From Clostridia bacterium (lineage in GTDB: Bacteria; Bacillota; Clostridia; HGM11327): DNA of 64,000 nt. Below the pieces are notes generated by a model. It made no database searches, was not told the origin of the DNA, and saw nothing but the letters and a program-made list of their open reading frames with translations. The stretch is from assembly GCA_045627045.1 (NCBI GenBank), contig JAZQMY010000005.1:26531-90530 (forward strand), in the 5' to 3' direction. Positions 42,911 to 59,840 of this stretch are shown one piece after another (the first letter of the stretch is position 1; every line of letters starts with the position of its first letter). Made by a program: the position numbers and the translations under genes.

Positions 42911-43657
42911 TCAGATATTAATGACGTTGATGGATCTGCATATATCATTAAGGAGATCAAAGAATGAGTCAAGAGTGATCTGAGCGGATAACATTACGGT
43001 ATCAACTTCAACACCGTAGTATTCCAGGTAGTATTGAAGATTATCCTCTGAAAATGCGAAGTAAGCACAAATATCGTCAAAAGCCAGGGATTCCTCGTCA
43101 ATATGCATATACTTTGTAAGTGAATGCAAATCAAACATATAAGGATTATATTCTTCCGGCATAAGCTCAACTGTTATCTGACCTGAAGTGCAGTCTACTA
43201 GAAGTATCCTGTCATAATAGCTGAACACGAGGACTTCCTTTTCTGCTGACATACCTCTGATCAGGTTTTCAAGGCTGTCTTTTTTAGTACAATCAATTAC
43301 GAAAAGCCCATTGGTGAACGGATTATTCATATATCCGAATTTGCTTTCAGATAATTCGGAAATTGTTGCCTGAAAATAATAATCTGTTTCAAGCTCAAAT
43401 TCACATGAATCATTCATTACAAGATAGGTACAATCCATAAGAATAACGTCTGAAGAACCATTATGAGGATTCTTGGGAGAGAAAAATACAGATGTGAGCA
43501 AAATCGACAACAGAATTACTGCTGCTGAAGCAGAAATAATAGCAGTGTAGACTGTTTTGCGCTTTGAATTTTTTGAATTTGTTTTTTGCGGATTTGCTTC
43601 TTCAATGTAGATATCATCAATTGATGAAAGCTGTTTACTTAATTCTAATTTATTCAT
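42911..43657 (-). CDS. Putative anti-sigma factor / single-pass membrane protein
   Basis: ATGA overlap with the upstream ECF sigma gene. Short cytoplasmic N-terminus, one TM (VYTAIISASAAVILLSILL) and an extracytoplasmic domain. Confidence 0.55.
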   Translation of the reverse strand: MNKLELSKQLSSIDDIYIEEANPQKTNSKNSKRKTVYTAIISASAAVILLSILLTSVFFSPKNPHNGSSDVILMDCTYLVMNDSCEFELETDYYFQATISELSESKFGYMNNPFTNGLFVIDCTKKDSLENLIRGMSAEKEVLVFSYYDRILLVDCTSGQITVELMPEEYNPYMFDLHSLTKYMHIDEESLAFDDICAYFAFSEDNLQYYLEYYGVEVDTVMLSAQITLDSFFDLLNDICRSINVINI

Positions 43658-44202
43658 AATATATTCTCCTTTATCAAGTGTGTTTTAAGGTCTGATCTTG
43701 TTCTGTGCAGAACAGTTTTAACATTGCTTTCGGTTAGTGAGTTGTTTTTTGCAATTTCAGATATGGAGCAGCAGTAAAAGTATCTCTGAATAAATACTAT
43801 CCTGTCACGCTTTGACAGCGTAGCAAGAAATACGTTCAGAGCATTCTTAATAGCAAGACTGTTTGTAATGTCGGGAGTGTTATCAGGAAAGCACTCTGAG
43901 AACTCATCGATTGAAACATCTGCTTCAGAATTTCGCTTTGATGCTGTTTTTCTGTCAAACATATTCAAAGCAATATTTCTTGTGATCCTGCCCAGGTAGG
44001 CACGAAGATTATCAGGATGCTCAGGCGGAATGTTATTCCATACGGCTAAAAGCGCATCGTTTATACATTCTTCGGCATCTTCGTTTGAATTCAGAATATT
44101 ATAAGCTATGTAGCTCATGTATCGTTTGTATTGCTTTTCTGTTTCGAGAATTGCATTTTCAGAACGGATGGAAAACAACTGCAACAGTTCCTTATCATTC
44201 AT
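43654..44202 (-). CDS. ECF-type RNA polymerase sigma factor
   Basis: Start moved to ATG 44202 after AAGGAGG. Region 2 (..DAEECINDALLAVW..) and a region 4 HTH (CSISEIAKNNSLTESNVKTVLHRTR). Confidence 0.8.
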   Translation of the reverse strand: MNDKELLQLFSIRSENAILETEKQYKRYMSYIAYNILNSNEDAEECINDALLAVWNNIPPEHPDNLRAYLGRITRNIALNMFDRKTASKRNSEADVSIDEFSECFPDNTPDITNSLAIKNALNVFLATLSKRDRIVFIQRYFYCCSISEIAKNNSLTESNVKTVLHRTRSDLKTHLIKENIL

Positions 44203-44531
44203 GATATACCTCCTTGTTTTAGCTGAAAGGCCTTTCAATACTAAAGTAATAATTTGCCATAAAAAGGTTACAAAATAAAAAAATAATTATGAACTGCCGT
44301 ATATACTAACATAATCAGATAATAAAGTCAATCAGTTCTATGTCAGCAGGCAGGATAGTTATTACGGATAATTATAATTTGTTTTTCGGAAAAGTGTGGT
44401 CAGAGAAGGGCTGATGCCGGATAGGATAAAAATGTTATGTAGTAAAGAGATTGTTGATTGATTTTGTATCTTGCCAGGAAACTTCAGCATAAAATCGAAA
44501 GCGAAGGCATCCACCTCGCTTTTTTGACATG

Positions 44532-44560
44532 AAAAAAGTGTCCGTGAAACTCACGAACAC
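44532..44560 (-). terminator. Orphaned terminator of tRNA-Leu(GAG) copy 1, now separated from it by the 15.3 kb element
   Basis: Minus strand GTGTTCGTGA-gtt-TCACGGACAC followed by TTTTTT. The 37-nt segment 44534-44570 equals 60282-60318 (downstream of tRNA copy 2) with one mismatch. Confidence 0.8.
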
Positions 44561-44571
44561 TTGATCTGGTA

Positions 44572-44593
44572 CGAGTGTTCATAAGGGATTTGA
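44572..44593 (+). repeat. Left terminal inverted repeat of the element
   Basis: CGAGTGTTCATAAGGGATTTGA. The reverse complement of 59816-59837 is CGAGTATTCATAAGGGACTTGA, so 20 of 22 positions are identical. Confidence 0.8.
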
Positions 44594-44676
44594 TAAATCA
44601 AATTACTCCGGCTCCGAATACATATATTCTTACTCGTATCCATTGCCGTTTGCAAATAATAATTTTGGATGATGAA

Positions 44677-45693
44677 TTACAGTGTGTATTTCTCTTGCAA
44701 GCATTGTATCAATTTAGGTATATATTCAATTTCATTTGCTATTATTTCTTTTATAGTATTGTCGATGTTTTCAAAATGCTTTTTATTCTGAGTTAATTCC
44801 ATTTTTATACCGAGAAGATGTATGTTTTCGGCTCTTTTATAATTCGTTTTTGCAAACAAACAAATTTCCTGGTTTTCAGGTAAAAACAAGTCACAGATTT
44901 GATTTAGAATCCACTCATGTTCAAGCAACACTCTTGCATACCTTCTGTCAACGTAAGCGTAGTCACTGTTTGTAATTTCATTTATGAAATAATCTCTTAC
45001 TCTTATGAGAGTCGAAATACCAAGAGATGCCTCATTAGGTAAATATTCTATTTCTGAAATATAGTCTTTAAGGTTTTTTATCATTCTTTTTATATTTGGT
45101 TCAGGTTCTGCGTTATCATTATAGCTTATAAAGTCAAGATTAATCAGTTCTCCTTTAATTGTCATTAGCCCAAGAATTACCTCTGCTTGTGAAGATTCAA
45201 ATCTCTCAAATACCCCGTTTTCAGTGTATCCTTCTAAAATGAAATTATCATCGTTATAACCGATAATTAAGAAATCGTGTGTATAATCAAAGTTGTGATA
45301 TGCATTTGTATGACAGACGTACTTCTCGTTGATGTTGCCATGAACATAGCAATTGTTATCTAATGATTCCTTTAAGATATACGATAAATTCAAACCGAAA
45401 ACATCCACTAAATCTTTCCGAATATATAAAGTCTGCTTAACCGTTAGTTTCTCTTCTGTTCCCCATAAATCTGTTGTCAAAATATTAAATTTGTTGTTTT
45501 TTGAATTTGGATAATATGAACAACTAACACATTTTGTGCATGCCCATTTTGTTATCTCTTGTGGAGCATTTGCCTGAATAATACCAAATGGATATGCAAG
45601 ATTATGATAACTTAATAATATTGGTTTTTCGGGGAACGGTAATATTTTCATTTCGTTAAATCTCATATTTTCTGATCTATAATTTGTTGACAT
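44677..45693 (-). CDS. Hypothetical protein, possibly papain-fold (C39/BtrH-N-like)
   Basis: 338 aa. Overlaps the FkbH-like gene end by 17 nt. The HDFLIIGYNDDNFILEGY segment resembles the catalytic-His strand (H-x-hydrophobic-GYD) of C39-like/BtrH-like proteins. Otherwise unrecognised. Confidence 0.5.
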   Translation of the reverse strand: MSTNYRSENMRFNEMKILPFPEKPILLSYHNLAYPFGIIQANAPQEITKWACTKCVSCSYYPNSKNNKFNILTTDLWGTEEKLTVKQTLYIRKDLVDVFGLNLSYILKESLDNNCYVHGNINEKYVCHTNAYHNFDYTHDFLIIGYNDDNFILEGYTENGVFERFESSQAEVILGLMTIKGELINLDFISYNDNAEPEPNIKRMIKNLKDYISEIEYLPNEASLGISTLIRVRDYFINEITNSDYAYVDRRYARVLLEHEWILNQICDLFLPENQEICLFAKTNYKRAENIHLLGIKMELTQNKKHFENIDNTIKEIIANEIEYIPKLIQCLQEKYTL

Positions 45694-47140
45694 AATTACA
45701 ATTTAGCATCCTTTCTTTGAGCCAAGCAGAAAAGTCTGCGTTTTTCCCGGTATTCCCGATTGCAATATCCGTTATTATTTCTTGTTTCAGAAGATAATTT
45801 GCCATCTGTTCTTCTACCCCTTTTCCGATTACACGGCATGAAAGTGAGAACAGTTTCACTTTCTCATTTTGAATTGCCATTGCTCCGATCAAACCGTAAT
45901 CGCTGACGGTGTCTTTGTAATACACAGAGTATAGTGTCCCTTTTTCATCAAGCAGTGTTTTCAGACCCCCGATGGTAAAACGGCCTCCGTTGGTTTTTTG
46001 GTTCGTCCGCATAGACAGTTCAGATATCCGTTTCCATTCGCTACTGTCGGCAGGATGTATTTCCGTTTCTCCGATAGTATTCATTGTATCTATTGATGCC
46101 TGCTCTGCTTTGAAATTCATTGCCCGGATTTTTGCTGTATCACTGTTGTTTTCTTTTAGCTTGAAGCAAGAAAGATCTCTATATACGGTATACGGATCAA
46201 AAAGAACTGTCTGAACTTCCGGCAAAAGGAAATTCATTTCTTTTATTTCTTCCGCGGAATCATCGACAAATACAATACTGTCCGGAGAGATATGCAGCAA
46301 CCCGGCCATTTCTCTAATGTTATCTGCCTTTCTTGTATAACCCGCGCGAATAATTGCGAAGTCTGTGTCTTTCAGTAACATTCCTGTATGGCTTTTCAGA
46401 ACTTCTGACAATGTTTCCTTATCATTCTTGGAACAGATACACAGGATGACTCCTCCTTTTAAGAGCCGAAGGACAAATCTTTGAAAATCCTTGTATTTCT
46501 CTGAGATATCTATTCCTTCTATGCCGTCTTCGTTCAGGATACCTCCCCACAGGACACCATCACAGTCCAGCGTAAGACATTTCTTGGTTTTGGAATATGC
46601 GATACAGTATTGGGTATATACTTCCTCCGCTATTTTTTTTATCAGTATCTCGGAATAAGGAGAGTTCCAGCGGTATTTCCCCTTTGCATTATATGAGTTG
46701 TTTATTCCGACTTCGGCGATTATCCTCTTAAAATCAATCAGCACGTCTGTTTCATCCAGAATTTCGGAAATATACAGATTGAGTTTATCGGACAGCCCAT
46801 GATATGAGAGTAGGTTGCCGAATACATTGCTCTCTTTCAAGTAATAGTCTTCAAACCCGAGCCAGAGGATTTGTGCATTTGTTTTCTCCCTTACGGTTCC
46901 GTATATTTCAGTACATTTGTTACACATATCGATATACCCAGTAATATCCGGAACCAGACTCCATTCACTCAGATGAAGATATAATAAGGCAAAATCCACA
47001 TCGAATGTGCGGATTTCAAAAACAGAATTCAAATATATGTATGTAATCTCGATATTATCAGAAAACACCTCAGTAAAACAGGGCTTCAAATATGGCTCAA
47101 AGTTCACGTTGCTGATAACCGCTATCCGAATCATACTCAC
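45677..47140 (-). CDS. FkbH-like HAD-IIIC family protein
   Basis: 487 aa. HAD motif I in the FkbH form LDCDGVLWGG, motif FVDDS, and a C-terminal GNAT-like part. ATGA overlap with the ACP gene. Confidence 0.7.
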   Translation of the reverse strand: MSMIRIAVISNVNFEPYLKPCFTEVFSDNIEITYIYLNSVFEIRTFDVDFALLYLHLSEWSLVPDITGYIDMCNKCTEIYGTVREKTNAQILWLGFEDYYLKESNVFGNLLSYHGLSDKLNLYISEILDETDVLIDFKRIIAEVGINNSYNAKGKYRWNSPYSEILIKKIAEEVYTQYCIAYSKTKKCLTLDCDGVLWGGILNEDGIEGIDISEKYKDFQRFVLRLLKGGVILCICSKNDKETLSEVLKSHTGMLLKDTDFAIIRAGYTRKADNIREMAGLLHISPDSIVFVDDSAEEIKEMNFLLPEVQTVLFDPYTVYRDLSCFKLKENNSDTAKIRAMNFKAEQASIDTMNTIGETEIHPADSSEWKRISELSMRTNQKTNGGRFTIGGLKTLLDEKGTLYSVYYKDTVSDYGLIGAMAIQNEKVKLFSLSCRVIGKGVEEQMANYLLKQEIITDIAIGNTGKNADFSAWLKERMLNCNYVNKL

Positions 47141-47391
47141 GAATCCTCTAATATTTCATTAATAACGTCCATTATGTGGGATATTGAGTCCAATTCCAAC
47201 ATTGTCAGTTTTTCGTCTGGAAAATCAAAGTCATATGTTTCTTCCAATTTTACTATTACCGAAATAAAAACTATAGAGTCTACACCTATTTCTATTAGGT
47301 TCTTTTCTGTGTCTTCCTCTGTAATTTTAAGTTCATCTGTGCATGAATTGAACATCTCAATAAGCTCCTTGATAGTTGGCTTCTTATTCAT
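47137..47391 (-). CDS. Acyl carrier protein
   Basis: 84 aa, acidic, with phosphopantetheine attachment motif GVDSIVF. Confidence 0.8.
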   Translation of the reverse strand: MNKKPTIKELIEMFNSCTDELKITEEDTEKNLIEIGVDSIVFISVIVKLEETYDFDFPDEKLTMLELDSISHIMDVINEILEDS

Positions 47392-48280
47392 CGTTTGCTC
47401 CCATAAAAACTTTTTTATTGATTTCTATCTTTCTTCTGTCTCTGTCGGTCAGGTCGGCTTCTATTAAAGGCAAGAGGTTATCTGCTTCCAACCGTGTGTT
47501 AAAGTCTACTTTCCACTCTTTTCGCTCTTTTTCGCAAAGCCCGTAAAGGTTCAGAAGTCTTTCTCCCTCCGGCGTACGGAATGCTTCGATGTATTTCTTC
47601 AGTATTTCATCCTCAAACACCTGGCTGGTATAATAAAGGACGTAAAAGACATATGGGATTATTTCATATTCCGAACTGATTCTGTACAGCTTTTCAATAG
47701 ATATTTCTTCAAAATTATTCTTTAGAAGATAATACACATCCTTGAACATTTCGTATTTGATACTATTCCTTGTCGCAAGAAGAAAGATACTGTTCATATC
47801 TTTATAATGATGGAGGATAAGCTGTACCATCGTTTTTAGCGGAGGAAGTGTTTTGACCTTTACCCCGTATATTTCCATATCTACTGTATCTGATAGGAAT
47901 TCCTCTATATCCACTCTTTTCTCTTCATATTCGCCCCAAAATATATCATAATTTATATCAATTGTAATAGGTAGATTCCCTACTTTAATTGCGTACTTTT
48001 GCAATTGATGCGAAGAAAGAAGGGGGAGAGCTCTGCTTATCCGATTAGAACACTGGCAAAAACCTATTTTTTGTAAAATACTTTCAACAACTTCTAAATT
48101 ATCTCGAGATACCAAAATATCAATATCTTGATATTGACGCAATCCCGACCTTTCGTATGCCATAATTGATAACGGTTCTCCTTTTATCAAAGCATAGGGT
48201 ATATCACCATTACCAAGTTGGTTCAACATGCCAGAACAACGTGAATACATTGCACTATATATTATGCTAGAATCAATCAT
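47384..48280 (-). CDS. Nucleotidyltransferase-family protein (NTP_transf_5-like)
   Basis: 298 aa. LKGEPLS...YQDIDILV resembles the uncharacterised nucleotidyltransferases found with HPr-kinase-like genes in peptide clusters. 8-nt overlap with the ACP gene. Confidence 0.6.
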   Translation of the reverse strand: MIDSSIIYSAMYSRCSGMLNQLGNGDIPYALIKGEPLSIMAYERSGLRQYQDIDILVSRDNLEVVESILQKIGFCQCSNRISRALPLLSSHQLQKYAIKVGNLPITIDINYDIFWGEYEEKRVDIEEFLSDTVDMEIYGVKVKTLPPLKTMVQLILHHYKDMNSIFLLATRNSIKYEMFKDVYYLLKNNFEEISIEKLYRISSEYEIIPYVFYVLYYTSQVFEDEILKKYIEAFRTPEGERLLNLYGLCEKERKEWKVDFNTRLEADNLLPLIEADLTDRDRRKIEINKKVFMGANDE

Positions 48281-48994
48281 ATAATACTGGTATAATTAAA
48301 TCATCCCCCAGCAAAAGATTCAATTACAAACTTCCTTTTCAAAAATTGGACTGTATGATATAATACTTGTGCTTTTAGGAGAACAGAGGATCAGGCACTG
48401 CTGGGAAGCGACCTGAGCACCGTTCCAGATTTTAAGAAGGAAAATACTTCCGATTGAATTGGCTCATCGCCCTTCGGAAAACATAAGGCAATAAACCAAT
48501 CCGGTAACTTTTTTGAAAAGTCCCATAATCCATTTCATATTTGAACTACAGCGACTTCGGTTGACTGGTTAATGGAGGGCTTGGCTGCGAGCTTTTTCCA
48601 GTTATTGTTATTAGTTTGTTATAGCGAAGGGCACATGCTCTTAGACTAGTTATAGGAAACCAGGGAATTGGGGAAGGTTACTCAGGGAGCACCGTGGCTT
48701 TTTCTTCATTTTCAAGGCGGACCGTCACATCCTCGTCGGTATCGATGTTGCATTCAAAAAGCATGATTATTTCATACTCCGCAAAGAAAGTGGTGAAACT
48801 AAAGTAGCTGCACTTCTCAACGGGCACTAAAAATGCGCCGCAGGACAACTCATAGAAGCTACTGGACACACGTAGAACTAAAGTCTGACTGCTACGCTTT
48901 TGAACTCACTGACAACATTGAGGAATTCGAATATATCTAACGCCACGTTGATAATTCTAATCAATAATGCTACATATTTGCAATGAATTTGTGT

Positions 48995-49906
48995 TCAGAC
49001 ATCGGTTAAATACTCGCAAATTTCCGCAATATCGTCAGCAGTTTTTTCGATTTCCTCAAGATTGTTCGGGATGATAATTTTGTAAAAAACCACCTTATCT
49101 GTAATTTCGTTAAACAAAAAAGATTTTTCAACCATATCGCAAAATTTGTACCCTAAAGAATTTGTTCCACATATGTTAAAATGAAGCAACATTTTTTTAT
49201 TGAACGTATTAGACACTTTATTCAATGATACCTTTTTACTGTTTTCGCGTTGAATAACGATGATAGAATCGATAGGTTGGCATGTTGTTCGATGTGTCCA
49301 TTTATCAGGTGGCTTCAGATATATCTTATTTTGTATATTTCTCCTCAAATCACAGTTTTCGCTATGTAATTGCAAAGCTTCATATGCAGTTTCAGTCAAT
49401 TTTAAACAATTTGCCCCAGAATATCCCACTATTCTCTCGTGCAAACATATTGCGATTGTATCGTCTGAAAAGAATGGATACCGCTTTTTTACAATTGCAG
49501 AGACCAATGTTGTTTTTCCTGAGCCTTTAGGAGCACATATCGGAATTAAATGGTTATTACAAATAAAACCTGATCCGTGCAATAACAACATTTGTTTACG
49601 AACTAAAAACAAGGCAAACGGTAAATTGAGTAAAGTTGATTGAATTTGTTCCAAAGTTATGGCTTGAGCAAAAATTATGTTACTATTATAATCCAGTCTG
49701 TATTTAATGTTTGAGTTGAGTTCCAACTCGTCGATTTCATCTCTCATATTAACACTAACAAACATTTTATCGTCCACACAATTGTTATCACACAAACTGA
49801 TTTCTAGAGTAACTACATCCATAAAAATTTGATTCGAATAAACGTCCAATATATTCAACTCATAATTGGATAATAATTTGAATCCATACAAATAATACTG
49901 AAACAA
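48995..49906 (-). CDS. HPr-kinase-C-terminal-domain-like P-loop protein (HprK-related kinase)
   Basis: 303 aa. LLLHGSGFI...ICAPKGSGKTTL matches the HprK-like core (hHGS/A..G....GxSGxGKS/T). Confidence 0.65.
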   Translation of the reverse strand: MFQYYLYGFKLLSNYELNILDVYSNQIFMDVVTLEISLCDNNCVDDKMFVSVNMRDEIDELELNSNIKYRLDYNSNIIFAQAITLEQIQSTLLNLPFALFLVRKQMLLLHGSGFICNNHLIPICAPKGSGKTTLVSAIVKKRYPFFSDDTIAICLHERIVGYSGANCLKLTETAYEALQLHSENCDLRRNIQNKIYLKPPDKWTHRTTCQPIDSIIVIQRENSKKVSLNKVSNTFNKKMLLHFNICGTNSLGYKFCDMVEKSFLFNEITDKVVFYKIIIPNNLEEIEKTADDIAEICEYLTDV

Positions 49907-49933
49907 GCCATCTCACCCTACTTTATATATTCT

Positions 49934-51631
49934 TTACTTATTCTCAACGATTTCAATTAACTGTCCTTTTTGAAACCGTAACACTACATCCGCAAACTTA
50001 GTCAGCTCATGATTGTGTGTGACAAATATAATTATTCTGTCATTACTATTCTTTTCGCACATATGCTGTATAATAGACTCTCCTGAAGCACTATCAATAG
50101 CGCTAGTAGGTTCATCCATAACAACTATTCTTTTATCTTTTAGATTTAAAGCAGCACGTATATTTGCTAGCTTTTGTTTTTCTCCGCCTGAGCACTCCAA
50201 ACCGGTGGCAACAAATGTTTTAGAATAATCGTTTTGTATTTCATTAAATCTGTCTAAATTAAAAACTCTGGTGAGATTAAGATACTCCTTCATATCATCT
50301 TCGTTTTCAATCAAAAGATTGTTTTTGATACTCATTCCGTCAATAAATTGAAAATCCTGCAAAATGCTTGAAACCTTTGAGTAATAATCAATCAAATTAA
50401 TCTCAGATAATAGGTGATCATTTACCAGTATCTGTCCTTCTGTTGGCCGATATAGTCCTAATATCAATTTTATGAGGGTACTTTTTCCTGACCCGTTTTC
50501 CCCAATAATAGCATAAGTTTTCCCTAACAAAAAATCAAAAGTAATCTTTGATAAAGCAAAACCATCTGTACCATAGTAACGATAAGAAACCTCTTTAAGT
50601 GAAATACAATTTATCTTATCGTCTCTCAATTTTTGTGTCGATATGTTAGATTCTGTTATTTGTTTGAACTTTTCATAATTCTTGCTCTCTAACACTCCTC
50701 CATAAAGGCTTGCAACCAATTTAATCATAGAAAAAAGCACACCGCTAAATTGCAAGGATGTATTTAATGTCACGGTGTAGTCGCCAATCGTCATTTCGCC
50801 TGATAACAACATATACCCAAATAATATCATAATGCCAAGCGTTACACTATTTTGCAAAACATTACCTGCTTGCGTGTAATAGAATAACCTAAGATTATTC
50901 TTAAAAGTGGATGTAATAAACGATTTTGAAATATCCGTAAATGTATATTTTAGAATTGGGTAAGTCCCATTGAGTCGAATATCTCTAGCTTGTTGTTTGT
51001 TTAGCAACAAGCCTTGAAAATAATTGATTTTTCTCCTCATTAATGTCGTTTGATTATTATACTCAACATCACACTTCGCCTTTTTTATCATTAACACATA
51101 ATTGACTATTACACTAGCAGAAATAGCTAATAACACCAAATAATTGAATTGAGCAACGATATAAATATACGATATAATAGTTATCGTGGTAGAGACTACA
51201 TTCAGAAATGTGTCAAAAACCCTTAATCCCACACCCGTTGCAAAGCCAAACGCTCTCTGAAAAATATTTGCTGTTTCAACATCATCATAATAATCGTATT
51301 GCATAATGAACATTCTGTCTAACGCTTCGCTCGTAATTAATAAATTGGCCTGCTGCAAGAGCTTATTTGAAAACAATTCAATAACCGCATATATCAATGA
51401 CAGTATTGTTTGCATGATTACAAAAAATACCACATATAAAAGGAAATAGTATATACTTTGTCTTACAACAATTGCGTCCAATATGTATTTAGGCATTACC
51501 GCGCTAAAAACGGGAAAAAAGCCTCCAATTAAAGCCAGCAAAACTTTTAATATAACAAAAATGCAATTTTTCTTTGCCACAGAAAATATAAAATTTAAAT
51601 AAAATTTAATTTCTTTCATAACATACTCCAA
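49934..51631 (-). CDS. ABC exporter, fused permease/ATPase (no peptidase domain)
   Basis: 565 aa. Six-TM N-terminal half, Walker A GENGSGKST, signature CSGGEKQK, Walker B VVMDEPTS. Confidence 0.88.
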   Translation of the reverse strand: MEYVMKEIKFYLNFIFSVAKKNCIFVILKVLLALIGGFFPVFSAVMPKYILDAIVVRQSIYYFLLYVVFFVIMQTILSLIYAVIELFSNKLLQQANLLITSEALDRMFIMQYDYYDDVETANIFQRAFGFATGVGLRVFDTFLNVVSTTITIISYIYIVAQFNYLVLLAISASVIVNYVLMIKKAKCDVEYNNQTTLMRRKINYFQGLLLNKQQARDIRLNGTYPILKYTFTDISKSFITSTFKNNLRLFYYTQAGNVLQNSVTLGIMILFGYMLLSGEMTIGDYTVTLNTSLQFSGVLFSMIKLVASLYGGVLESKNYEKFKQITESNISTQKLRDDKINCISLKEVSYRYYGTDGFALSKITFDFLLGKTYAIIGENGSGKSTLIKLILGLYRPTEGQILVNDHLLSEINLIDYYSKVSSILQDFQFIDGMSIKNNLLIENEDDMKEYLNLTRVFNLDRFNEIQNDYSKTFVATGLECSGGEKQKLANIRAALNLKDKRIVVMDEPTSAIDSASGESIIQHMCEKNSNDRIIIFVTHNHELTKFADVVLRFQKGQLIEIVENK

Positions 51632-52252
51632 ATAAAAAGCATAATCATAAGGGAACCTCTATAAATTGAATTTTTCAGTTCCCGTTTTTGATTTTTCGGT
51701 TCAAATTTCGAAATTATTTCCATGCACATATTATAAACAAGATTAGTAAGACCGATATTGAACTTGGCTCTCTCAATACCGATTGAACGTACAGTAAGCC
51801 CATGCATTGTCATTGTCATAAAACCGAATACATGCTCAATTCTTGCTCTTGTTTTGGTCTTGATTCGATTGCTTTCTTTTTGCTTTGCTGTCAAAGATTT
51901 AAGGCAGCCCTTTTCATGAACATGATTGGTTACGTGCTTTGGTAATTCTTTTCCTGCATAGGCGGCTGTCGACATAAACTTATTTATCGTTTTTGTCGAT
52001 AAAATCCACAAACCCATTGCTGTCGTGTACATTTGCAGATGTTACGGCATAATCGATGATAAGCTTGCTTTCGGCATCGACTTTGGTATGATCCTTATAG
52101 CCGTAATGTGTTTCATTGCCCTTCTTTGTCCAACGGGCATCAGTATCTTTTTGAGCCAGTTTTGCCTTGTTTTCCTCCCATTCTTCAGGTATTTCGCCGT
52201 TTTTTATTATCTTGTTCTCCTCACTGTTGTTTCTTCGATGGGAAGCGTCCAC
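51616..52252 (-). pseudogene. IS5-family transposase remnant (5'-truncated, frameshifted)
   Basis: Two overlapping ORF fragments (..QKDTDARWTKKGNETHYGYKDHTKVD.. and ..RARIEHVFGFM....RSIGIERAKFNIGLTNLVYN) cover only the DDE core. The N-terminal third is missing and there is a frame shift near 52030. Confidence 0.8.
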
Positions 52253-52268
52253 ATACGTACTATCTCTA

Positions 52269-53621
52269 TCAAAATAATCTGGTTTTGCTTTTTTCGTAAT
52301 TCAAGTATACAATTTGATCCAAATTGTCCTTGGTGGGAGAGCACTTGGGTGATACCTCAAAACCATTTTTCACTCTATATGCAGGGCATGAAGATCCACA
52401 GCAAAATGGATATGCAATACACCCGAAACACTTATTTTTGCGTAGATACTCTATGTAAAATTTATCATCCAAAATCCATAATTTCTCTTTTTCAGCGTTT
52501 ATGTTAAAATACCCTTCGTTAATATCTCCAATTACAAATGGGGATTCACAATCTGGTGATTCTTCCAATGTACATTTTCCGATGCATCCATTTTTGTATA
52601 TAACATATGTGTGTTTTTTATTAGCATAGCACAACTCTGATCCACAAGCAAAATTATAGTGTTTTGCAGGGTAAATATCCATTTCCCCGCACTTCTTCAA
52701 CAATTGCTCCATTATGTATGGATGATACTCACTAGAAATGGCAGAGTATTGGTCGTCATTTTCACCGCCCCAGTGTCCAATAGCCTTAAAGGCTATTTCA
52801 AATCTAGCATCATCCTTGAAATTAAAACTGAAATACTCCAAAAATCTCTCAATGCTGTTAAGAATTTCAAAATTGTAATTAACACGTATTAAAACTTTAA
52901 ACTGCTTCTCTATAGTTTTCATTTGCAATAAATTATTGGTTATTCTTTCCCACGTTGGATTGCCAAACTTGTCATATCTATATTTATCATGAGTTTCCGC
53001 CATCCCGTCCACTGTGATTTGGAAAATATTAACGCTTGCATCAATTAATTCTTCAGCAAGTTTTTTCTTAAGAAGTGAACCATTTGTTGTCATACTGTGC
53101 TGAAATACAATATTTTTTGATTGACAGAAATTATTAATACGAGTCGTTAAGTCAAGTATTTGGTCATAAAACAGCAATGGCTCACCGCCAAACCATTCAA
53201 TTTTCAAAAAACCAAATCCGACAGTTTCATAGTGTGCTACAATAGAAGAATATATATTTTCAATCGTTGCTTGACTCATAAATCCCGCTTCTTTATTCTC
53301 ATAGCAATACTTGCATTTGAAATTGCATTCTAATGTAGGAAAAATAATTAGTGATAAACTATTTTCATCTCCAATAATTTTTCTTATTTGGTGATATACC
53401 CTCAAATCTTCATCGTCATTCACGGCAACGCAATAGTTTTCAACTATGCGTTTATCTAATTGTTCGGAACTAATTGGACGATCTACTAGCGAACGAATTT
53501 GCTGAATTAAAGATTCATCAAATATAACACTTTGTTTTCCAGTAACAGTATTATATACTATCATTTCTTCGGTTTCATCTAGTTCTATGACCTTTGTATA
53601 TTTTGATAATGTGTATTTCAT
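52269..53621 (-). CDS. Radical SAM/SPASM peptide maturase with N-terminal RRE-like extension
   Basis: 450 aa. CNFKCKYC (CX3CX2C) at about residue 90. C-terminal Cys cluster CFGCIAYPFCCGSSCP (SPASM-like). The N-terminal 85 aa (..EEMIVYNTVTGKQSVIFDES..) looks like a PqqD/RRE-type domain. Confidence 0.8.
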   Translation of the reverse strand: MKYTLSKYTKVIELDETEEMIVYNTVTGKQSVIFDESLIQQIRSLVDRPISSEQLDKRIVENYCVAVNDDEDLRVYHQIRKIIGDENSLSLIIFPTLECNFKCKYCYENKEAGFMSQATIENIYSSIVAHYETVGFGFLKIEWFGGEPLLFYDQILDLTTRINNFCQSKNIVFQHSMTTNGSLLKKKLAEELIDASVNIFQITVDGMAETHDKYRYDKFGNPTWERITNNLLQMKTIEKQFKVLIRVNYNFEILNSIERFLEYFSFNFKDDARFEIAFKAIGHWGGENDDQYSAISSEYHPYIMEQLLKKCGEMDIYPAKHYNFACGSELCYANKKHTYVIYKNGCIGKCTLEESPDCESPFVIGDINEGYFNINAEKEKLWILDDKFYIEYLRKNKCFGCIAYPFCCGSSCPAYRVKNGFEVSPKCSPTKDNLDQIVYLNYEKSKTRLF

Positions 53622-53932
53622 ATTAATCTCAATTCTGCCGCTAAAGCATCACCACAAATAGGAATGAAAGAGTGCTACTAGGCGGCGATTTTGTAACAAT
53701 TTTCTGTTAAAATGTTTTCAGGGAGAAGACACACTACAACGCACAGGGAGGTGAGTCGTAGAAGTACTTCTTGCTGAAAACAGTATTTTAATCAGTGTTA
53801 GAATCATCTTGTCAAGCACAAATAAGTGTTGACACCGAGCACGTACGCTAAAAAATGTTTTAACGCCTGTTAAATTGTGTGATGATTCAGTCACTGTCTT
53901 CTCCTCACAGCTTAATTTGAGGAGGGATATTT

Positions 53933-55160
53933 TTGAAAGTTGTATTTCCTGTTTGCTACGGTATCGATGTTTACAAAACATTTTTGGTCGGAACGACTAT
54001 TTCAACCACAGACGGTGTACACCCGCATTACCAAAAGAAACGCTTTTCCACATATAATTCAGACCCGCATCGCTTTGCCGACTGGCTTCTCGCAAACAAC
54101 CGCTATGATATCTGTATGGAATCCGCTGGCAAGTATTGGGTTCCGATTTTCAACATTCTTGAAGAATGCGGCATCCGTGTTGCGATTTTCAATCCCAAAT
54201 AGGTAAAAGCCGTCAAGGGTAACAAGGACGATATAAAACGACTTGTTTCGTTTGAGGCTTTTCCCGGGGAGTTTTATTCCGCCTAAGGAAATTCGCATCC
54301 TTCGTGAATTTGCCCGCTATCGCTACAAACTAGTTTCAGTGAAAAGCAGTGAGAAAAACCATTTTCAAAACGCTTTTACCGTTTGTAATGTTGCTCTTGA
54401 TTCTGTTGTTTCGGATATGTTCGGCAAATCTGCAACTGCAATTACAGATTACCTCATCTCCGAAGATTCATTCAATCTGGAATATTGCGTCTCTCTTTTA
54501 CAGCGTTCCCTGAAAAAGAAGTCCGATTCCGTGCTTGAATCCATTGAAGGATATTCCATTACAAATGAGCAAAAATTGCAAATGAGAATTGTACGTTCTC
54601 ATCTGTATTACATTACTAGCACTATTTCTCAGGTGGATTCTGCGATTGATGCGATGGTCGCAAAGCACGATGTGGTGATTTCTCTGCTCTGTACTATTCC
54701 CGGTGTTGACCGCAATTCTGTCATTACGATCATTTCCGAAATCGGTACCGATATATCTCAATTCGGTTCCTCAAAACGCCTGTGCTGCTGGGCGGGACTA
54801 ACGCCCAATAACAATGAATTTGCCGGCAAGAAAAAGTCTGTTCGCATTACACGTGCTGGAGTATATCTCAAACCTGCATTGGTGCAAATTGCCCATGCAG
54901 CCGTGAAACCAACCGACAATTCTTACCACCGTTTGAAGTATGAGCAAATTTCCAAGTGCAGAGGAAAGAAACGAGCCATCATTGCCATCGCACGGATGAT
55001 TCTCACTGCTGTTTTCAAAATGATGTCTACCGGCGAAGTCTGGAATCATAAAAATCTCTTCAAAGTCGATATGCCGAAATCACTCATAGAACGCAAACTT
55101 ACCAAAGCTGTCAAACAAGCCACTAAATTCCTTGAAAAGCAAGGATTGACCGTTTCTTAG
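53933..55160 (+). pseudogene. IS110-family transposase, disrupted
   Basis: The N-terminal DEDD domain (VCYGIDVYKTF...MESAGKYW) ends at an in-frame TAG where IS110 proteins have NPKW. The frame then changes before the C-terminal domain (FIPPKEIRILREFARYRYKL...). Confidence 0.8.
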
Positions 55161-55351
55161 TTCTTTGTTGAATACCTTTTCGTTAACCTTGCAAAAAAAT
55201 ATCGTCTTGCAATGTCTTTTCCTTATGCCTTTCGTCATGTGGACGTGGTATTTCTTTTACGCTAACACCTTTAATTATATTAACAACAGCGACGTTCAAA
55301 ATAGTTAATAAACTTCCTTGAACAATTCTGCCAATAAAAATTTCGAATATC

Positions 55352-55405
55352 ATTCCGAGACGCCAAACGACAAAGCAACTTGGCATCTCGGAATCCGTTT
55401 TTTTT
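55352..55405 (+). terminator. Strong hairpin plus T-run (terminator in plus orientation, probably IS110-associated)
   Basis: ATTCCGAGACGCCAA / TTGGCATCTCGGAAT 15-bp stem followed by CCGTTTTTTTT. Confidence 0.65.
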
Positions 55406-55502
55406 GTGGCAATCTCATTTTTGAAATGCAGATTACCACGGGGCTACCGCCACTCACAATGACAACTCAATCCCATTTTACTACTTCGACTTTATATTTG
55501 CG

Positions 55503-55628
55503 TTATGAACATGCGATGCCCAAATTGGGCGAACAACCACATTGTGGAACAATATTTATTGTTCCACCGCATCCAGGAATAAAGTTAATTCCGTTGGGGG
55601 CAGTTATGTTGTTATCAAAATCCTTCAC
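55503..55628 (-). CDS. Candidate RiPP precursor peptide B (41 aa, not in ORF track)
   Basis: GTG start 9 nt after AAAGGAG. Translation: (M)KDFDNNITAPNGINFIPGCGGTINIVPQCGCSPNLGIACS. Paralogous to peptide A. Confidence 0.7.
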   Translation of the reverse strand: MKDFDNNITAPNGINFIPGCGGTINIVPQCGCSPNLGIACS

Positions 55629-55677
55629 ACCAATATACTCCTTTCTGTGTTGTGATTATCAATGAATATTAGTTTAT

Positions 55678-55779
55678 TTAAGAGCAGACACACATATTTA
55701 AATTAATGGTACAGCCACATAATGGAACAATATTGAGATCAAATTGCGGATTCTCTGCTACGGGCAATAAATTACTCAT
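55678..55779 (-). CDS. Candidate RiPP precursor peptide A (33 aa, not in ORF track)
   Basis: ATG 9 nt after GGAGG in AAGGAAGGAGG. Translation: MSNLLPVAENPQFDLNIVPLCGCTINLNMCVCS. Confidence 0.7.
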   Translation of the reverse strand: MSNLLPVAENPQFDLNIVPLCGCTINLNMCVCS

Positions 55780-55982
55780 TTGTATAATCCTCCTTCCTTT
55801 TGAATAATATGTTCATAGACTCTGCGTTCGTCCTTATAACGAAAAACGGTGGCAAAAGTATTACAAACCCAAAATTAGTTTGGTTTGAGAACTATTGGAT
55901 ATCAAACAACAACTCAATATACTCGGGGGAATTATGTCCTAATAATCCGACGCGCATATACCAACCTCCATCTGATTCTAAT

Positions 55983-56018
55983 AAAAAAGCACAAACCATC
56001 CCTTAGAATAGTCTGTGC
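55983..56018 (-). terminator. Rho-independent terminator (minus strand) upstream of the precursor genes
   Basis: Minus strand GCACAGAC-14 nt-GTTTGTGC followed by TTTTTT. Confidence 0.6.
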
Positions 56019-56262
56019 ACTATATTTCAAATTCTCTTGGAGAATGTGAGTGTCTTGATTACTAAACAGACATATTCTTTGTTAATTTTATTATACTACA
56101 CTATTTATTATTTGTCAACTATTTAATCACAAAAAATATATATTTTTTATCATTATTTAAATAAAATTTTACACAATATTTCAAACATATTATAATCTTT
56201 TTAAAATTATTACATAATCATTCAGCTTTTCTGATTCTTGTGATTATTTTTTCAAAATACCC

Positions 56263-56470
56263 GATATTTTGGTCCACCTTATTCCATACATTATGGAGCC
56301 CCTCTATTGACGATAGCACGGGATAGAACCGTACACAACACGACTTGCGTGAAACATAGAAAAAATAATACAGGAAGCCGCAAACAGGGTTATCTTTTGC
56401 CACCCCGTATTCCATACATTATGGAGGGCACTCTTGACAACAGCACCTGATATCACCGTACACATCACTG
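56263..56470. repeat. Two direct repeats with a period of about 126 bp, each containing a TCCATA-cat-TATGGA palindrome (a degenerate third copy lies near 56587-56650)
   Basis: CCACC..TATTCCATACATTATGGAG..C(T)TTGAC..ACCGTACACA occurs at 56274-56337 and 56400-56464. A weaker match GACCACCCTTTGTGCATTAATTATAGAGGG...CCTTGACAAC starts at 56589. Confidence 0.75.
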
Positions 56471-56957: not shown

Positions 56958-57020
56958 ATTACGGACGCGGTGCGTCCGTAATGTAGCAAGCATCGCATTT
57001 GGGTGCACACACCCCAATGC
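56958..57020 (+). other. Two adjacent strong hairpins, candidate oriT or regulatory region upstream of the MobC-like genes
   Basis: ATTACGGACGC-ggt-GCGTCCGTAAT (perfect 11 bp) and GCATTTGGGTG-caca-CACCCCAATGC (10 of 11). Confidence 0.4.
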
Positions 57021-57074
57021 AGTTGTCAGGGGAAGCCCTGAAACCCTGAGAAACAGACAAAGGAGAACAAGAAT

Positions 57075-57431
57075 ATGGAGAAAAAGACTGAAAGAATTAA
57101 ATTCTGGCTTACTGACAAGGAACTGAAAAAACTTGACCGTCAGGCAAAGAAAGCAAAAATGACTCGTTCGGAATATATCCGCAAAAAAATCAATGAAAGC
57201 ACAGTAATCATCTCACCGGAGATTGATTACGAAAGCTATTACAAAGAGTTCCACCGACTCGGAGATGAATTGAACGGTTACGTTGTCAAACTGAACACGA
57301 CCGGAGTCTTCAATGAAAAAAAGACGGATCGTATTATTACAGAGCTTAACGAGCTGATGAAAAAATTTGACACCGAAGCAACCGAAAAGCTGAATGAAAA
57401 CATTAAAAAAGCTAATGGAGAGCCGGTATGA
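57075..57431 (+). CDS. MobC-like ribbon-helix-helix protein
   Basis: 118 aa. ..FWLTDKELKKLDRQAKKAKMTRSEYIRKKI.. is the typical MobC/RHH N-terminus. Confidence 0.65.
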   Translation: MEKKTERIKFWLTDKELKKLDRQAKKAKMTRSEYIRKKINESTVIISPEIDYESYYKEFHRLGDELNGYVVKLNTTGVFNEKKTDRIITELNELMKKFDTEATEKLNENIKKANGEPV

Positions 57432-57787
57432 GAAACAGTAAGCATTATATTCAGGCAAGAGTATCGCCAAGTGAGAAAGACCACTTCTTACGAGTGACGG
57501 AACTTTGTAATATGACAGAACACACAGTTCTTGACCATTATCTGGAAGGATATCCGCTCGCAGAGCACCCACCGGAAGAATTTTGGGAGCTCGACAGATT
57601 GCTTTTGAGAATCACATTGCTGCTAAGCCATGTATGGCTTAGCAAAAATATGCGTTTGGAAAAGCAACAGAACAAATATTACACTGCACAGAAACAACTG
57701 AACAAACTCTGCAATAATGCTTTTTGGAAAATAAAACTCGCTGATCCAGATTATGGAAACGACAGCAACGATAAAAGAAAGGGCTAA
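57428..57787 (+). CDS. Hypothetical protein, second MobC/RHH-like
   Basis: 119 aa. ..ARVSPSEKDHFLRVTELCNMTEHTVLDHYL.. resembles RHH relaxosome accessory proteins. ATGA overlap with the previous gene. Confidence 0.5.
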   Translation: MRNSKHYIQARVSPSEKDHFLRVTELCNMTEHTVLDHYLEGYPLAEHPPEEFWELDRLLLRITLLLSHVWLSKNMRLEKQQNKYYTAQKQLNKLCNNAFWKIKLADPDYGNDSNDKRKG

Positions 57788-57796
57788 ACACACAAT

Positions 57797-58027
57797 ATGA
57801 AAAGAAATAGATGGATATGCGGATTGCTCACAGGAAAACAGGAATATTTGATAAACGGCGTAAAGTATATTGTATCAGCCGAATTTGAAAAACGGGATTC
57901 AAGTAATACAATACGCTCCCGTTTTGAGCATGCAATAAAAAGTGAAATGATAGATTTGACAATACGGCCGTCTGATGATATAATAAGAAAGGAATATATG
58001 TATTCGGCTGCCGGAAAGGAGGATTAA
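57797..58027 (+). CDS. Small transposon-associated protein (TnpW-like, tentative)
   Basis: 76 aa, immediately preceding (stop/start adjacent) the serine recombinase, as small ORFs do in Tn4451-type elements. Confidence 0.45.
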   Translation: MKRNRWICGLLTGKQEYLINGVKYIVSAEFEKRDSSNTIRSRFEHAIKSEMIDLTIRPSDDIIRKEYMYSAAGKED

Positions 58028-59743
58028 ATGCAGTCGAAAAACAAAAAAGTAAAAAGCGAAGAAACAGGAATCACAGCACTGTATAGCCGTCTTTCACGGG
58101 ACGACGGATCAGACAGTGAAAGCAATTCTATTGCCAATCAGAAAAAACTGCTTTCTCAAAAGGCAAAGGAGCTGGGGCTGACCAATACAAAGCATTATGT
58201 TGATGACGGTTACACGGGGACAAACTTCAATCGCCCGGCATTTCAGCAGATGACAGAGGATATTGAGATGGGATATGTTACAACTGTTATGGTGAAGGAT
58301 TTATCCCGTCTGGGCAGAGATTATGTTTCAGTAGGAAATTATACTGACAGATATTTTCCGGAGCACAACGTCCGTTTTATCGCCGTTAACGACGGCATAG
58401 ACAGCGACGAGGGCGAAAGTGAAATCGCACCGTTCAAGAATATTCTGAACGAAATGTACGCAAGGGATATTTCAAAAAAGATAAGAAGCTCGCACCGTCT
58501 GCGTGGCAATGCCGGTGAACCGCTTTCACAACCGCCTTACGGATATATGAAATCACCCGAAAACAAGAAAAAGTGGATTGTAGATTATGAAGCAGCAGAA
58601 ATCGTAAAGCGTATATTCAGGATGTGCATTGAAGGCAACGGAAACGAAACAATTGCTCACTCACTGCAGAACGAAAAAATTCTGAATCCGATGGCATACT
58701 GGCGAAGCAAAGGTCTCAACAGAGGCGGCAAAAGGACACAGCCGGATCCTTATCATTGGTGTAAAACCACAGTACAAAAAATACTTGCACAGCAGGAATA
58801 CTGCGGCGACATAATCAACTTCAAAACATATTCGAAGAATTTCAAAAACAAAAACCGTCTTGAAAACCCGAAGGAGAACTGGGTGATTTTCAAAGATGTT
58901 CATGAACCGATTATCGACAGGGAGACCTTCGAACAAGTACAACAACTTACCGCAGAAACAAAACGCCGTGCACCGAAACCTGATAATTCACAAAAGAGTA
59001 TATTAAGCGGTTTGATTTATTGCGGAGACTGCCACAATATAATGCGATATCATACGAATACGTCAAACAAAGATATCCATTTTTTCTCGTGTAGCAACAA
59101 TATAGTGGACTATCGAGGTACCTGCCGCAGCCGTCATTATGTCCGTGCTGATTCAGTAGAGCAGGTTATCACGCTTGAACTCAGACGTATGGCTTCTTTC
59201 CTGAAAGCCGACGAAGATGCCTTTGCAGAGCTTCTTGCGCAAAAAACCAACGAATCAATTGCAAAAGAACAGAATCAGGCAAATGATGAGCTGCAGAAAG
59301 CACTTGTACGGAGTGATACAGTTTCACAATTGTACGAAAAGCTCTATGAGGATAACGCTTCGGGAAAGGTATCTGATGAATGGTTTATGCAGCTGTCCCA
59401 TAAATATGAACTGGAACGAATGGAACTTAAGGCAAAGATAACCGAATTACGAAAAAAGCTTTCTGAAATCGGGAGTCGCCAGCAGGAGCGGAACAATTTT
59501 ACCTACGCCATTCGCAAGTTTATGGAGATGGACAAGCTGACTGCACCGCTTCTTCGTGAGCTCATTGATCATATTGATGTTTACGAAACAGAAGGTACTG
59601 GCAAAAACAGAACACAACGGATAGTAATCTATTACCGCTTTGTGGGCTATATTGAATTGCCTGAAAACTTTTTCCGTACAAACTACAAGGCTGATACAAG
59701 GCGTGGTGTTGCAGTGGAGTATATCCCCACAAAGACAGCATAA
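58028..59743 (+). CDS. Large serine recombinase (TnpX/phage-integrase-like)
   Basis: 571 aa. Resolvase catalytic motif ALYSRLSRDD. Recombinase domain. Zinc ribbon CGDCHN...FFSCSN. C-terminal coiled coil. Confidence 0.92.
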   Translation: MQSKNKKVKSEETGITALYSRLSRDDGSDSESNSIANQKKLLSQKAKELGLTNTKHYVDDGYTGTNFNRPAFQQMTEDIEMGYVTTVMVKDLSRLGRDYVSVGNYTDRYFPEHNVRFIAVNDGIDSDEGESEIAPFKNILNEMYARDISKKIRSSHRLRGNAGEPLSQPPYGYMKSPENKKKWIVDYEAAEIVKRIFRMCIEGNGNETIAHSLQNEKILNPMAYWRSKGLNRGGKRTQPDPYHWCKTTVQKILAQQEYCGDIINFKTYSKNFKNKNRLENPKENWVIFKDVHEPIIDRETFEQVQQLTAETKRRAPKPDNSQKSILSGLIYCGDCHNIMRYHTNTSNKDIHFFSCSNNIVDYRGTCRSRHYVRADSVEQVITLELRRMASFLKADEDAFAELLAQKTNESIAKEQNQANDELQKALVRSDTVSQLYEKLYEDNASGKVSDEWFMQLSHKYELERMELKAKITELRKKLSEIGSRQQERNNFTYAIRKFMEMDKLTAPLLRELIDHIDVYETEGTGKNRTQRIVIYYRFVGYIELPENFFRTNYKADTRRGVAVEYIPTKTA

Positions 59744-59799
59744 AACAAACGAGCAGACAAAATGCCTGCTCATACATTAATAAAATTAACATCAAAAAA

Positions 59800-59839: not shown

Positions 59840-59840
59840 A

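Follow-up and report, generated by a model that had tools for sequence, protein, structure and literature searches.

What does a bacterium make with a gene set in which a radical S-adenosylmethionine (SAM) peptide maturase stands beside an HPr-kinase-like protein, a nucleotidyltransferase, an acyl carrier protein (ACP) and an FkbH-like enzyme? The question is raised by a 64,000-nt stretch of a Clostridia bacterium genome (GenBank assembly GCA_045627045.1, contig JAZQMY010000005.1, positions 26,531 to 90,530), hereafter the window, in which such genes lie at 44677–55779 and had been read from the sequence alone as a composite cluster for a peptide made by ribosomes and modified after translation (RiPP). 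We found all of the genes listed in that original prediction, intact, where it had placed them, on the minus strand except for an IS110 fragment on the plus strand. The cluster is a real peptide natural-product cluster and one member of a fairly widespread, apparently unstudied family, so the copy in the window is not unique. In support of the earlier reading, the locus as a whole probably makes two ribosomal peptides as a single biosynthetic gene cluster, which sits on a mobilisable insertion in an uncultured, Acutalibacteraceae-like gut bacterium of the Oscillospirales. This answer is carried by the identities of the genes at the level of family or fold, by the conservation of the precursors and by the co-conservation of a tailoring module with radical-SAM peptide genes.

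Three overlapping minus-strand genes encode a short NTP_transf_5 nucleotidyltransferase (298 aa, 47384..48280; PF14907, 81.1 bits against a gathering score of 31.2), an 84-aa ACP with a DS motif (GVDSI; 47137..47391; PF00550, 37.7 bits) and a 487-aa FkbH-type HAD-IIIC enzyme (45677..47140; TIGR01686), a predicted glyceryl-ACP synthase. The stop/start overlap is 8 nt between the nucleotidyltransferase and ACP genes and 4 nt between those of ACP and FkbH. The FkbH protein scores 165.2 bits against TIGR01686, above the curated cut-off of 146.65, and its sequence contains LDCDGV, a form of the HAD motif DxDx(T/V), and LSCRVIGKG with the SCR Cys motif. The Pfam and TIGR01686 matches bear out all three identities as originally assigned. 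The nucleotidyltransferase belongs to a short subfamily, distinct from a long type described below, and is 45–68% identical to those that accompany ACP/FkbH in other loci; a sequence search of the PDB returned nothing for either type.

Relatives of the short nucleotidyltransferase number 149 in metagenomes and 46 in species-representative genomes, and co-occurrence was counted in 49 metagenome loci of at least 10 kb and 37 genome loci of at least 12 kb. In the metagenome loci, ACP is present in 47/49, FkbH in 42/49, an HprK-like kinase in 40/49 and a radical-SAM/SPASM enzyme in 40/49; the corresponding genome counts are 32/37, 29/37, 28/37 and 31/37. All four occur together in 31 of the 49 metagenome loci and 23 of the 37 genome loci. 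The recurrence of the gene set in other genomes, on which the original prediction had staked itself, is therefore borne out. The usual operon comprises a precursor, one to three radical-SAM genes, the kinase, an optional signal-peptidase-like protease, one or two ATP-binding cassette (ABC) transporter genes, the nucleotidyltransferase, an optional VOC-fold protein, ACP and FkbH. Because gene order varies and the radical-SAM enzymes beside the module belong to different subfamilies (StsB-like, PqqE-like and the family of the window), the linkage is functional rather than inherited synteny. It is likely that many radical-SAM peptide clusters of gut Clostridia share a conserved tailoring module made up of the kinase, the short nucleotidyltransferase, ACP and FkbH. 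One locus, L191, is a twin of the window cluster free of insertion sequences (IS): beside the kinase, the ABC gene, ACP and FkbH, it encodes A1-like and A2-like precursors (see below), each with a C-terminal Ser, a maturase 49% identical to that of the window and a nucleotidyltransferase 64% identical.

Most sister clusters of the window's maturase family have the kinase followed by a long NTP_transf_5 protein (507–526 aa), without ACP/FkbH (L001, L006, L097, L099). The C-terminal half of the long type (for example, L006 13716–15239), about 250 aa, has no similarity to anything tested in Pfam, PDB or HMM comparisons; a relationship to FkbH, ACP or the 338-aa protein discussed below was rejected because HMM, hhalign and Pfam searches all came back empty. 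Its restriction to loci that lack ACP/FkbH suggests that the same site is decorated there by other means. Between the nucleotidyltransferase and ACP genes there is often a gene, missing from the window, for a VOC/glyoxalase-fold protein of about 139 aa (22/80 metagenome loci; for example, L214 10767–11195, L243 10830–11252 and L183 7505–7915). It has a weak methylmalonyl-CoA-epimerase-like match and could modify the ACP-bound unit.

The candidate substrates of the pathway are two small paralogous Cys-rich peptides encoded on the minus strand: A1, 33 aa (MSNLLPVAENPQFDLNIVPLCGCTINLNMCVCS; 55678..55779), with an AGGAGG ribosome-binding site, and A2, 41 aa with a GTG start (MKDFDNNITAPNGINFIPGCGGTINIVPQCGCSPNLGIACS; 55503..55628). 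The strong Shine-Dalgarno sites first noted for both were confirmed, both being of GGAG type. The C-terminal ends read ...NIVPLCGCTINLNMCVCS in A1 and ...GINFIPGCGGTINIVPQCGCSPNLGIACS in A2, so that both end Cys-Ser. Neither peptide matches any NCBIfam peptide model or Pfam family. They share the repeated motif (I/V)N-x-x-P-x-CG(C/G)(T/S)xN. Homologous Cys-rich small open reading frames (ORFs) lie directly upstream of the maturase gene in L001, L006, L009, L097, L098 and L191; A1 homologues adjoin homologous maturases in L001, L009, L097 and L191, and A2 homologues are present in L001, L006, L009, L097 and L191. The small ORF found upstream in L099, a more distant locus, is rich in Cys but is not homologous to A1 or A2. 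Conservation of the small ORFs beside homologous maturases, another point on which the original prediction could have failed, held at every homologous maturase examined. All 12 precursors read in the window's family end in Ser, and so do the unrelated precursors of the more distant clusters L099 and L184.

The maturase (450 aa; 52269..53621, minus strand), placed by profiles and by alignment to CteB, is a radical-SAM/SPASM peptide enzyme with an N-terminal extension of about 85 aa. The identification as a radical-SAM enzyme with CNFKCKYC, a CX3CX2C motif, was confirmed by the sequence and by PF04055 (49.7 bits) and PF13353. Its best NCBIfam matches are all peptide maturases (CefB, TIGR04463, Clo7bot, geopeptide, FlmE/OhkG and PapB), and the closest solved structure is that of CteB, the thermocellin thioether synthase (5wgg, E 5e-16). 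The highest score, against CefB, is 139 bits, with a cut-off of 600, and the scores against all other named curated families, SCIFF included, are likewise below cut-off. A sulfatase maturase, the identity that would have spoken against a peptide pathway, was rejected: anSME scores lie well below those of the peptide maturases, and the protein groups with CefB, TIGR04463, Clo7bot, PapB and CteB. The C-terminus carries seven Cys that are invariant in the family alignment, and alignments to SPASM RiPP-maturase families and to CteB extend to residues 408–446; the SPASM assignment rests on this full-length alignment. The N-terminal extension is covered by the CefB, TIGR04463 and FlmE profiles. Among 5.8 billion proteins there are about 18 close relatives (39–60% identity), one of them on 249 contigs. 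A scan of genomes with the radical-SAM alignment, the patterns of which are too generic, found only relatives at 27–35% identity, none with the kinase.

An ABC gene follows the maturase gene in L001, L006, L009, L097, L098, L099 and L191. In the window it encodes a permease and ATPase of 565 aa (49934..51631, minus strand; Pfam and NCBIfam profiles), 35–44% identical to the protein of the same position in L001, L006, L009 and L191. Its alignment to peptidase-containing transporter models starts only at position ~120–160 of the models, so it is an exporter without a C39 domain, as had been proposed. The core operon of precursor(s), radical-SAM gene, ABC gene and kinase recurs in gut metagenomes; it is present in L001, L006, L009, L097, L099 and L191.

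The last member of the core operon is a P-loop kinase of 303 aa (48995..49906, minus strand). Sequence profiles recognise it weakly: it scores 19.3 bits against TIGR04352, with a cut-off of 200, and all five homologues tested hit TIGR04352 and TIGR04355 weakly, one of them also hitting ScmC. A PDB sequence search returned generic P-loop matches only, and a scan of genomes with the kinase alignment yielded no confirmed relative. An AlphaFold2 (AF2) model built from an alignment of database homologues has a pLDDT of 91.9, and Foldseek matches it to PEPCK and HprK/P at probability 1.0, confirming the HprK/PEPCK fold behind the earlier description as an HPr-kinase-like protein. The Walker A motif followed by FFSDD (GSGKTT...FFSDD) is invariant across the kinase family, and we take it to mirror GxSGxGKS...LVADD of HprK/P. 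The kinase is co-conserved with the maturase family, its homologue lying after the ABC gene or just before the precursors. Lasso peptide machinery (an Asn-synthetase-like cyclase, B1/B2) is absent from the window and the sister loci, in agreement with the earlier statement that the cluster has no lasso cyclase. In lasso systems, an HprK homologue phosphorylates the C-terminal Ser of the precursors and a nucleotidyltransferase adds hexoses to the phosphate (PMC8498205). Given the invariant C-terminal Ser, the same first step, Ser phosphorylation, would be the most economical reading here.

The gene downstream of FkbH encodes a protein that we call p338 after the length of its ORF, which extends to 45693; judged from homologues, the true start is probably 45651, giving 324 aa (44677..45651, minus strand). 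The p338 family comprises 9 clusters among 5.8 billion proteins and has no Pfam match, BtrH_N included. An AF2 model (pLDDT 89.5) is matched by Foldseek, over its full length and at probability 1.0 (TM 0.56–0.65), to AziU2/U3, CtaG and CcbD, which are all papain-like and all accept their acyl group from a carrier protein. CtaG uses the triad Cys11/His128/Asp144 and is built of two parts, one papain-like and one helical (PMC12865890). The p338 model has the same two-part fold, with a papain-like N-domain and a helical C-domain. The papain-like fold originally proposed thus holds for the N-domain, but the protein is a homologue of carrier-protein-dependent transacylases and not a generic papain-like protein. 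A role as protease or leader peptidase was rejected because the fold matches are all ligases, and the presence of p338 shows no complementary pattern with the signal-peptidase-like proteases. His125, on the HDFLIIGY strand, is invariant in the family. Homologues of p338 adjoin ACP and FkbH in L090 and L180; in L093 and L181 their neighbours are a carrier protein and an AMP-binding enzyme, and L183 has a BtrH_N-like protein instead of p338. Distant paralogues occur after FkbH as tandem pairs or as a 588-aa fusion (L185 12738–14821, L192 13268–15234, L263 12635–14398) and keep an H-x-x-L-I-Y-G-Y strand motif. The p338 homologue of L093 (1–11916) is accompanied by an 82-aa carrier protein, two AMP-binding enzymes, a peptide of 90 aa that is very rich in Cys and a radical-SAM protein of 716 aa that has two C-terminal regions rich in Cys; this locus appears to represent a second type of RiPP cluster in which a carrier protein and a ligase of the p338 family are employed.

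In the pathway that we propose, A1 and A2 would be made with short leaders, and the maturase, judging from its placement near CteB, would cross-link the repeats of the precursor motif, most likely through Cys-to-carbon thioethers such as those of ranthipeptides or sactipeptides. The HprK-fold kinase would phosphorylate the side chain of the invariant C-terminal Ser in the manner of the paeninodin kinase, a step suggested by its fold, its co-conservation and the Ser itself, and the NTP_transf_5 enzyme would elaborate the Ser phosphate, by analogy with pseudomycoidin. Since FkbH scores above its family cut-off and retains the catalytic motifs, it would load a glycerate unit from 1,3-bisphosphoglycerate onto the ACP, and this unit would then be joined to the peptide. 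More speculatively, p338 may help in the joining by moving the ACP-bound acyl group to an amine or hydroxyl. The precursor cores contain no Lys, so an amide would require either the N-terminus exposed by loss of the leader or a group that the nucleotidyltransferase had attached; a phosphodiester through the glycerate hydroxyl would be the alternative. The ABC transporter, from its family and position, would export the product, which is predicted to carry thioether rings, a C-terminal phospho-Ser and a phosphate-linked or acyl glycerate unit.

A more specific version is that the kinase, short nucleotidyltransferase, ACP and FkbH build an unprecedented modification, in which the phosphorylated Ser at the C-terminus of a peptide cross-linked by the radical-SAM enzyme receives a glycerate unit supplied as a carrier-protein thioester. 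We advance this version tentatively and think it somewhat improbable. A possible route to glycerate on phospho-Ser is nucleotidyl activation of the phosphate followed by attack of the glyceryl hydroxyl; the leftover thioester would be hydrolysed or, with a CtaG-like ligase, captured by an amine.

The cluster region has a GC content of ~33–36%, against ~43% in the rest of the window. Upstream of the precursor genes, about 310 nt from A1, lies a sigma-70-type promoter-like site on the minus strand (TTGACA-17-TATAAT, 12/12, a consensus match only; 56090..56118), followed, between it and A1, by a terminator-like hairpin with a 13-bp stem (55989–56018, minus strand); together they may control the precursor genes as a regulated leader or an attenuator. 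A frameshifted and truncated IS110-family transposase pseudogene (53933..55160, plus strand) separates the precursors from the maturase gene. Pfam (PF02371) and NCBIfam profiles agree with the earlier assignment as an IS110 pseudogene on the opposite strand, the score against NF033542 being 124 bits, below the 140-bit cut-off, and covering profile positions 110–342 only; the N-terminal part of the transposase is encoded in other frames. The IS5-family remnant reported between the maturase and ABC genes is likewise present, split into two ORF fragments (51616–52252, minus strand; Pfam, NCBIfam). A sister cluster, L183, also carries IS110-family and IS21 elements inside it (5040–5870, 12115–14339), and clusters of this kind seem to have been struck repeatedly by insertion sequences. 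The gap of 0.7 kb noted earlier between the kinase and nucleotidyltransferase genes measures 714 bp (48281..48994) and contains no detectable gene, pseudogene or Rfam match; its GC content is ~39%, above that of the flanking genes. That it is a remnant of a long nucleotidyltransferase or of any sister-locus gene was ruled out by tblastn, which returned nothing.

The whole cluster lies in a 15.7-kb segment (44575–60281) bounded by a 41-bp direct repeat (left copy 44534..44574, right copy 60282–60322) that consists of the tRNA-Leu terminator and the first bases of the tRNA. Two copies of tRNA-Leu(GAG), identical at 83/83 positions, occupy 59841–59923 and 60315–60397. On the plus strand, 57075..59743 encodes a NikA-like protein, a 119-aa ORF (57428–57787), a small ORF and a 571-aa large serine recombinase. 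The 119-aa ORF has no family match and stands at the position after nikA where L006 has a 453-aa relaxase. Recombinases comparable to that of the window adjoin sister clusters. The segment looks like an integrated mobilisable element next to tRNA-Leu; long repeats of this kind are not normally made by serine recombinases. Just outside the insertion, also low in GC, are minus-strand genes for an extracytoplasmic function (ECF)-type sigma factor (194 aa) and a membrane protein (248 aa; 42911..44238 for the pair). The membrane protein has one predicted transmembrane segment and no family match and is possibly an anti-sigma factor. In L095, L182 and L192, too, there are sigma genes in the vicinity of p338 homologues; the pair may be regulators of the cluster, but the association is weak. 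The NrdD protein of the host is 82% identical to its counterparts in metagenome-assembled genomes of Acutalibacteraceae and Eubacteriales.

Several findings weigh against our reading. The window contains no leader peptidase and no PqqD gene, and sister clusters often have a signal-peptidase-like protease (NCBIfam signal peptidase I family) and a PqqD gene. The Pfam SPASM model does not match the maturase even at E ≤ 10, so that of the SPASM-like C-terminal Cys cluster originally described, the invariant Cys and the full-length alignments to the families and CteB stand, but the Pfam assignment does not. Nor does any PqqD or RiPP recognition element (RRE) profile in Pfam or NCBIfam match its N-terminus: the N-terminal extension is there, but its proposed identity as an RRE was not confirmed. 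Ten of 12 members of the p338 family have Cys at residue 14, the N-terminus of the first helix, and the window protein has Ser there (codon AGT, one base from TGT); residue 14 was equated with Cys11 of CtaG by its place in the model rather than by a structural alignment of individual residues. The window protein therefore keeps His125 and lacks the Cys of a Cys-His-Asp triad. Moreover, p338 is found in 4/49 metagenome and 5/37 genome loci and is absent from ~90% of sister clusters. We rejected it as the general glyceryl transferase of the class on this ground: present in only ~10% of nucleotidyltransferase/ACP/FkbH loci, it is an accessory and not a general glycerate-coupling enzyme. In the wider short-nucleotidyltransferase class, 23/82 candidate small ORFs end in S, T or Y, against 3/22 antisense controls, and a C-terminal hydroxy residue was rejected as a rule for the whole class; the window's family and several further ones do show the pattern (…SPTY, …ITIT, …ISLY, …CTTS). 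Finally, the type of cross-link, the site of phosphorylation, the substrate of the nucleotidyltransferase and the acceptor of the glycerate are all inferred.

The state of the window copy calls for separate weighing, because two IS remnants interrupt its operon and its transcription may be impaired. The family could be real and this copy a decaying, non-functional relic on a mobile element, inactive in whole or in part. Besides the IS110 pseudogene and the IS5 remnant, such decay would fit the Ser at the nucleophile position of p338, the missing leader peptidase, a 119-aa ORF after nikA that may be a relaxase remnant (it is not similar to the L006 relaxase) and the loss of the kinase and precursors from a related locus, L192. 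The ORFs, however, are full-length when set against their homologues (maturase 450 versus 446–457 aa, ABC protein 565 versus 571, kinase 303 versus 303, nucleotidyltransferase 298 versus 299–306, ACP 84 versus 84, p338 324 versus 328); FkbH, with 487 versus 517 aa, differs by internal gaps and has its motifs intact. Degradation of the IS copies themselves means that the biosynthetic genes have remained intact ever since the IS elements inserted, and a Ser is able to serve as an acyl-transfer nucleophile. We therefore judge a relic unlikely.

Two further explanations would detach the module from the peptide. According to one, two unrelated cassettes, a radical-SAM peptide cluster and a polysaccharide or small-molecule cassette of nucleotidyltransferase, ACP and FkbH, lie side by side by chance. 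FkbH-like HAD-IIIC proteins are indeed also found outside RiPP clusters, the only solved FkbH relative is the uncharacterised Bacteroides fragilis protein BF1531 (3slr), the two halves of the locus are separated by the 0.7-kb gap, and four sister clusters have the long nucleotidyltransferase in place of ACP/FkbH. Yet the triad recurs with both the radical-SAM/SPASM enzyme and the HprK-like kinase in the majority of the loci counted above, the linkage spans radical-SAM subfamilies and gene orders, usually within one co-directional operon, and L191 has the full set of the window without IS; we regard juxtaposition by chance as extremely improbable. According to the other, the nucleotidyltransferase, ACP and FkbH, with or without p338, decorate the cell envelope of the producer (for example, with glycerate or a phospho-linked group) as self-immunity. 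The cluster has no evident gene dedicated to immunity, the module stands at the 3' end of the cluster after the exporter genes, and LicD/fukutin-type nucleotidyltransferase-fold enzymes transfer phospho-alcohols to surface polymers. Against envelope decoration, the module has no membrane-anchored transferase or flippase and is tightly linked to the HprK-like kinase, and the single NTP_transf_5 enzyme from a RiPP cluster that has been studied modifies the phospho-Ser of the peptide (PMC8498205). This makes a role in self-immunity very unlikely.

A module conserved on several radical-SAM peptide scaffolds predicts new post-translational chemistry at the peptide terminus. If glycerate is indeed placed on phospho-Ser, this pathway would be the first of any RiPP to employ a carrier protein loaded by FkbH, and it would establish a new subclass of RiPPs, present in at least 46 species of bacteria, most of them Clostridia of the gut. 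The p338 family also represents a new group of papain-like ligases associated with RiPPs. The question is directly testable, since there are carriers in culture (Paenibacillus silagei DSM 101953 and Huintestinicola butyrica) as well as the IS-free twin L191. Since the clusters lie on serine-recombinase elements, they are probably exchanged among gut Clostridia and may affect competition there.

We compared the cluster with known systems that share some of its components. Ranthipeptide and sactipeptide clusters (CteB/thermocellin, PapB/freyrasin) likewise have an ABC exporter and short Cys-rich precursors with repeated motifs beside a radical-SAM/SPASM maturase that bears an N-terminal extension, but the window maturase is far below every named cut-off, that of CefB included. 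To our knowledge, and going by the literature searched rather than by inspection of the clusters themselves, no HprK-like kinase, NTP_transf_5 protein or FkbH/ACP pair has been reported in a characterised ranthipeptide or sactipeptide cluster. The phosphorylated and phospho-glycosylated lasso peptides (paeninodin PadeK; pseudomycoidin PsmK/PsmN), together with the NCBIfam 'HPr-rel-A' system, share the HprK-related kinase, the NTP_transf_5 protein and a precursor ending in Ser. They differ in that the window has no lasso cyclase, B2 protease or PqqD gene, that its scaffold enzyme is a radical-SAM/SPASM protein and that its nucleotidyltransferase belongs to the short, ACP/FkbH-paired subfamily. 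The SynChlorMet (SCM) cassette (ScmC/D/E/F, TIGR04248–04251), the nearest precedent in the databases, combines a radical-SAM/SPASM protein with PqqD and the P-loop protein ScmC, to which several of the kinases give weak hits. These hits are far below cut-off, however, and SCM, which is uncharacterised and bioinformatically defined, has no nucleotidyltransferase/ACP/FkbH and no known precursor.

The FkbH/carrier-protein unit normally belongs to polyketide pathways. The cassettes for methoxymalonyl-ACP in FK520, for tetronates and for oxazolomycin (OzmB) resemble the window in an FkbH protein above cut-off with the HAD DxDxV and SCR Cys motifs and an adjacent stand-alone ACP. In contrast, the window has no ketosynthase, no FkbI/FkbK-type oxidation genes and no polyketide synthase (PKS), and its cassette sits in a ribosomal-peptide operon. 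The enzymes most similar to p338, CtaG of closthioamide, CcbD/LmbD of lincosamides, AziU2/U3 of azinomycin and BtrH of butirosin, share its two-part fold, the strand His ('HDFLIIGY' in p338), a first helix whose N-terminus holds the nucleophile position (residue 14 in p338, Cys11 in CtaG) and a gene beside those of a carrier protein and a loader; p338 is set apart by an identity of 6–11%, the lack of a Pfam family, its RiPP context and, in the window, Ser for Cys. RiPP and carrier-protein pathways of the PKS or nonribosomal peptide synthetase (NRPS) type are usually separate, and the few known hybrids, lipolanthines, goadvionins and selidamides, have attracted interest because they broaden the chemistry open to ribosomal peptides. 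The literature searched contains no description of FkbH/ACP tailoring in a radical-SAM RiPP or of an HPr kinase with a radical-SAM RiPP, in keeping with the initial impression that the combination is not an already described RiPP class. The parts are of known kinds; what is new is a RiPP cluster with an undescribed carrier-protein-dependent tailoring module.

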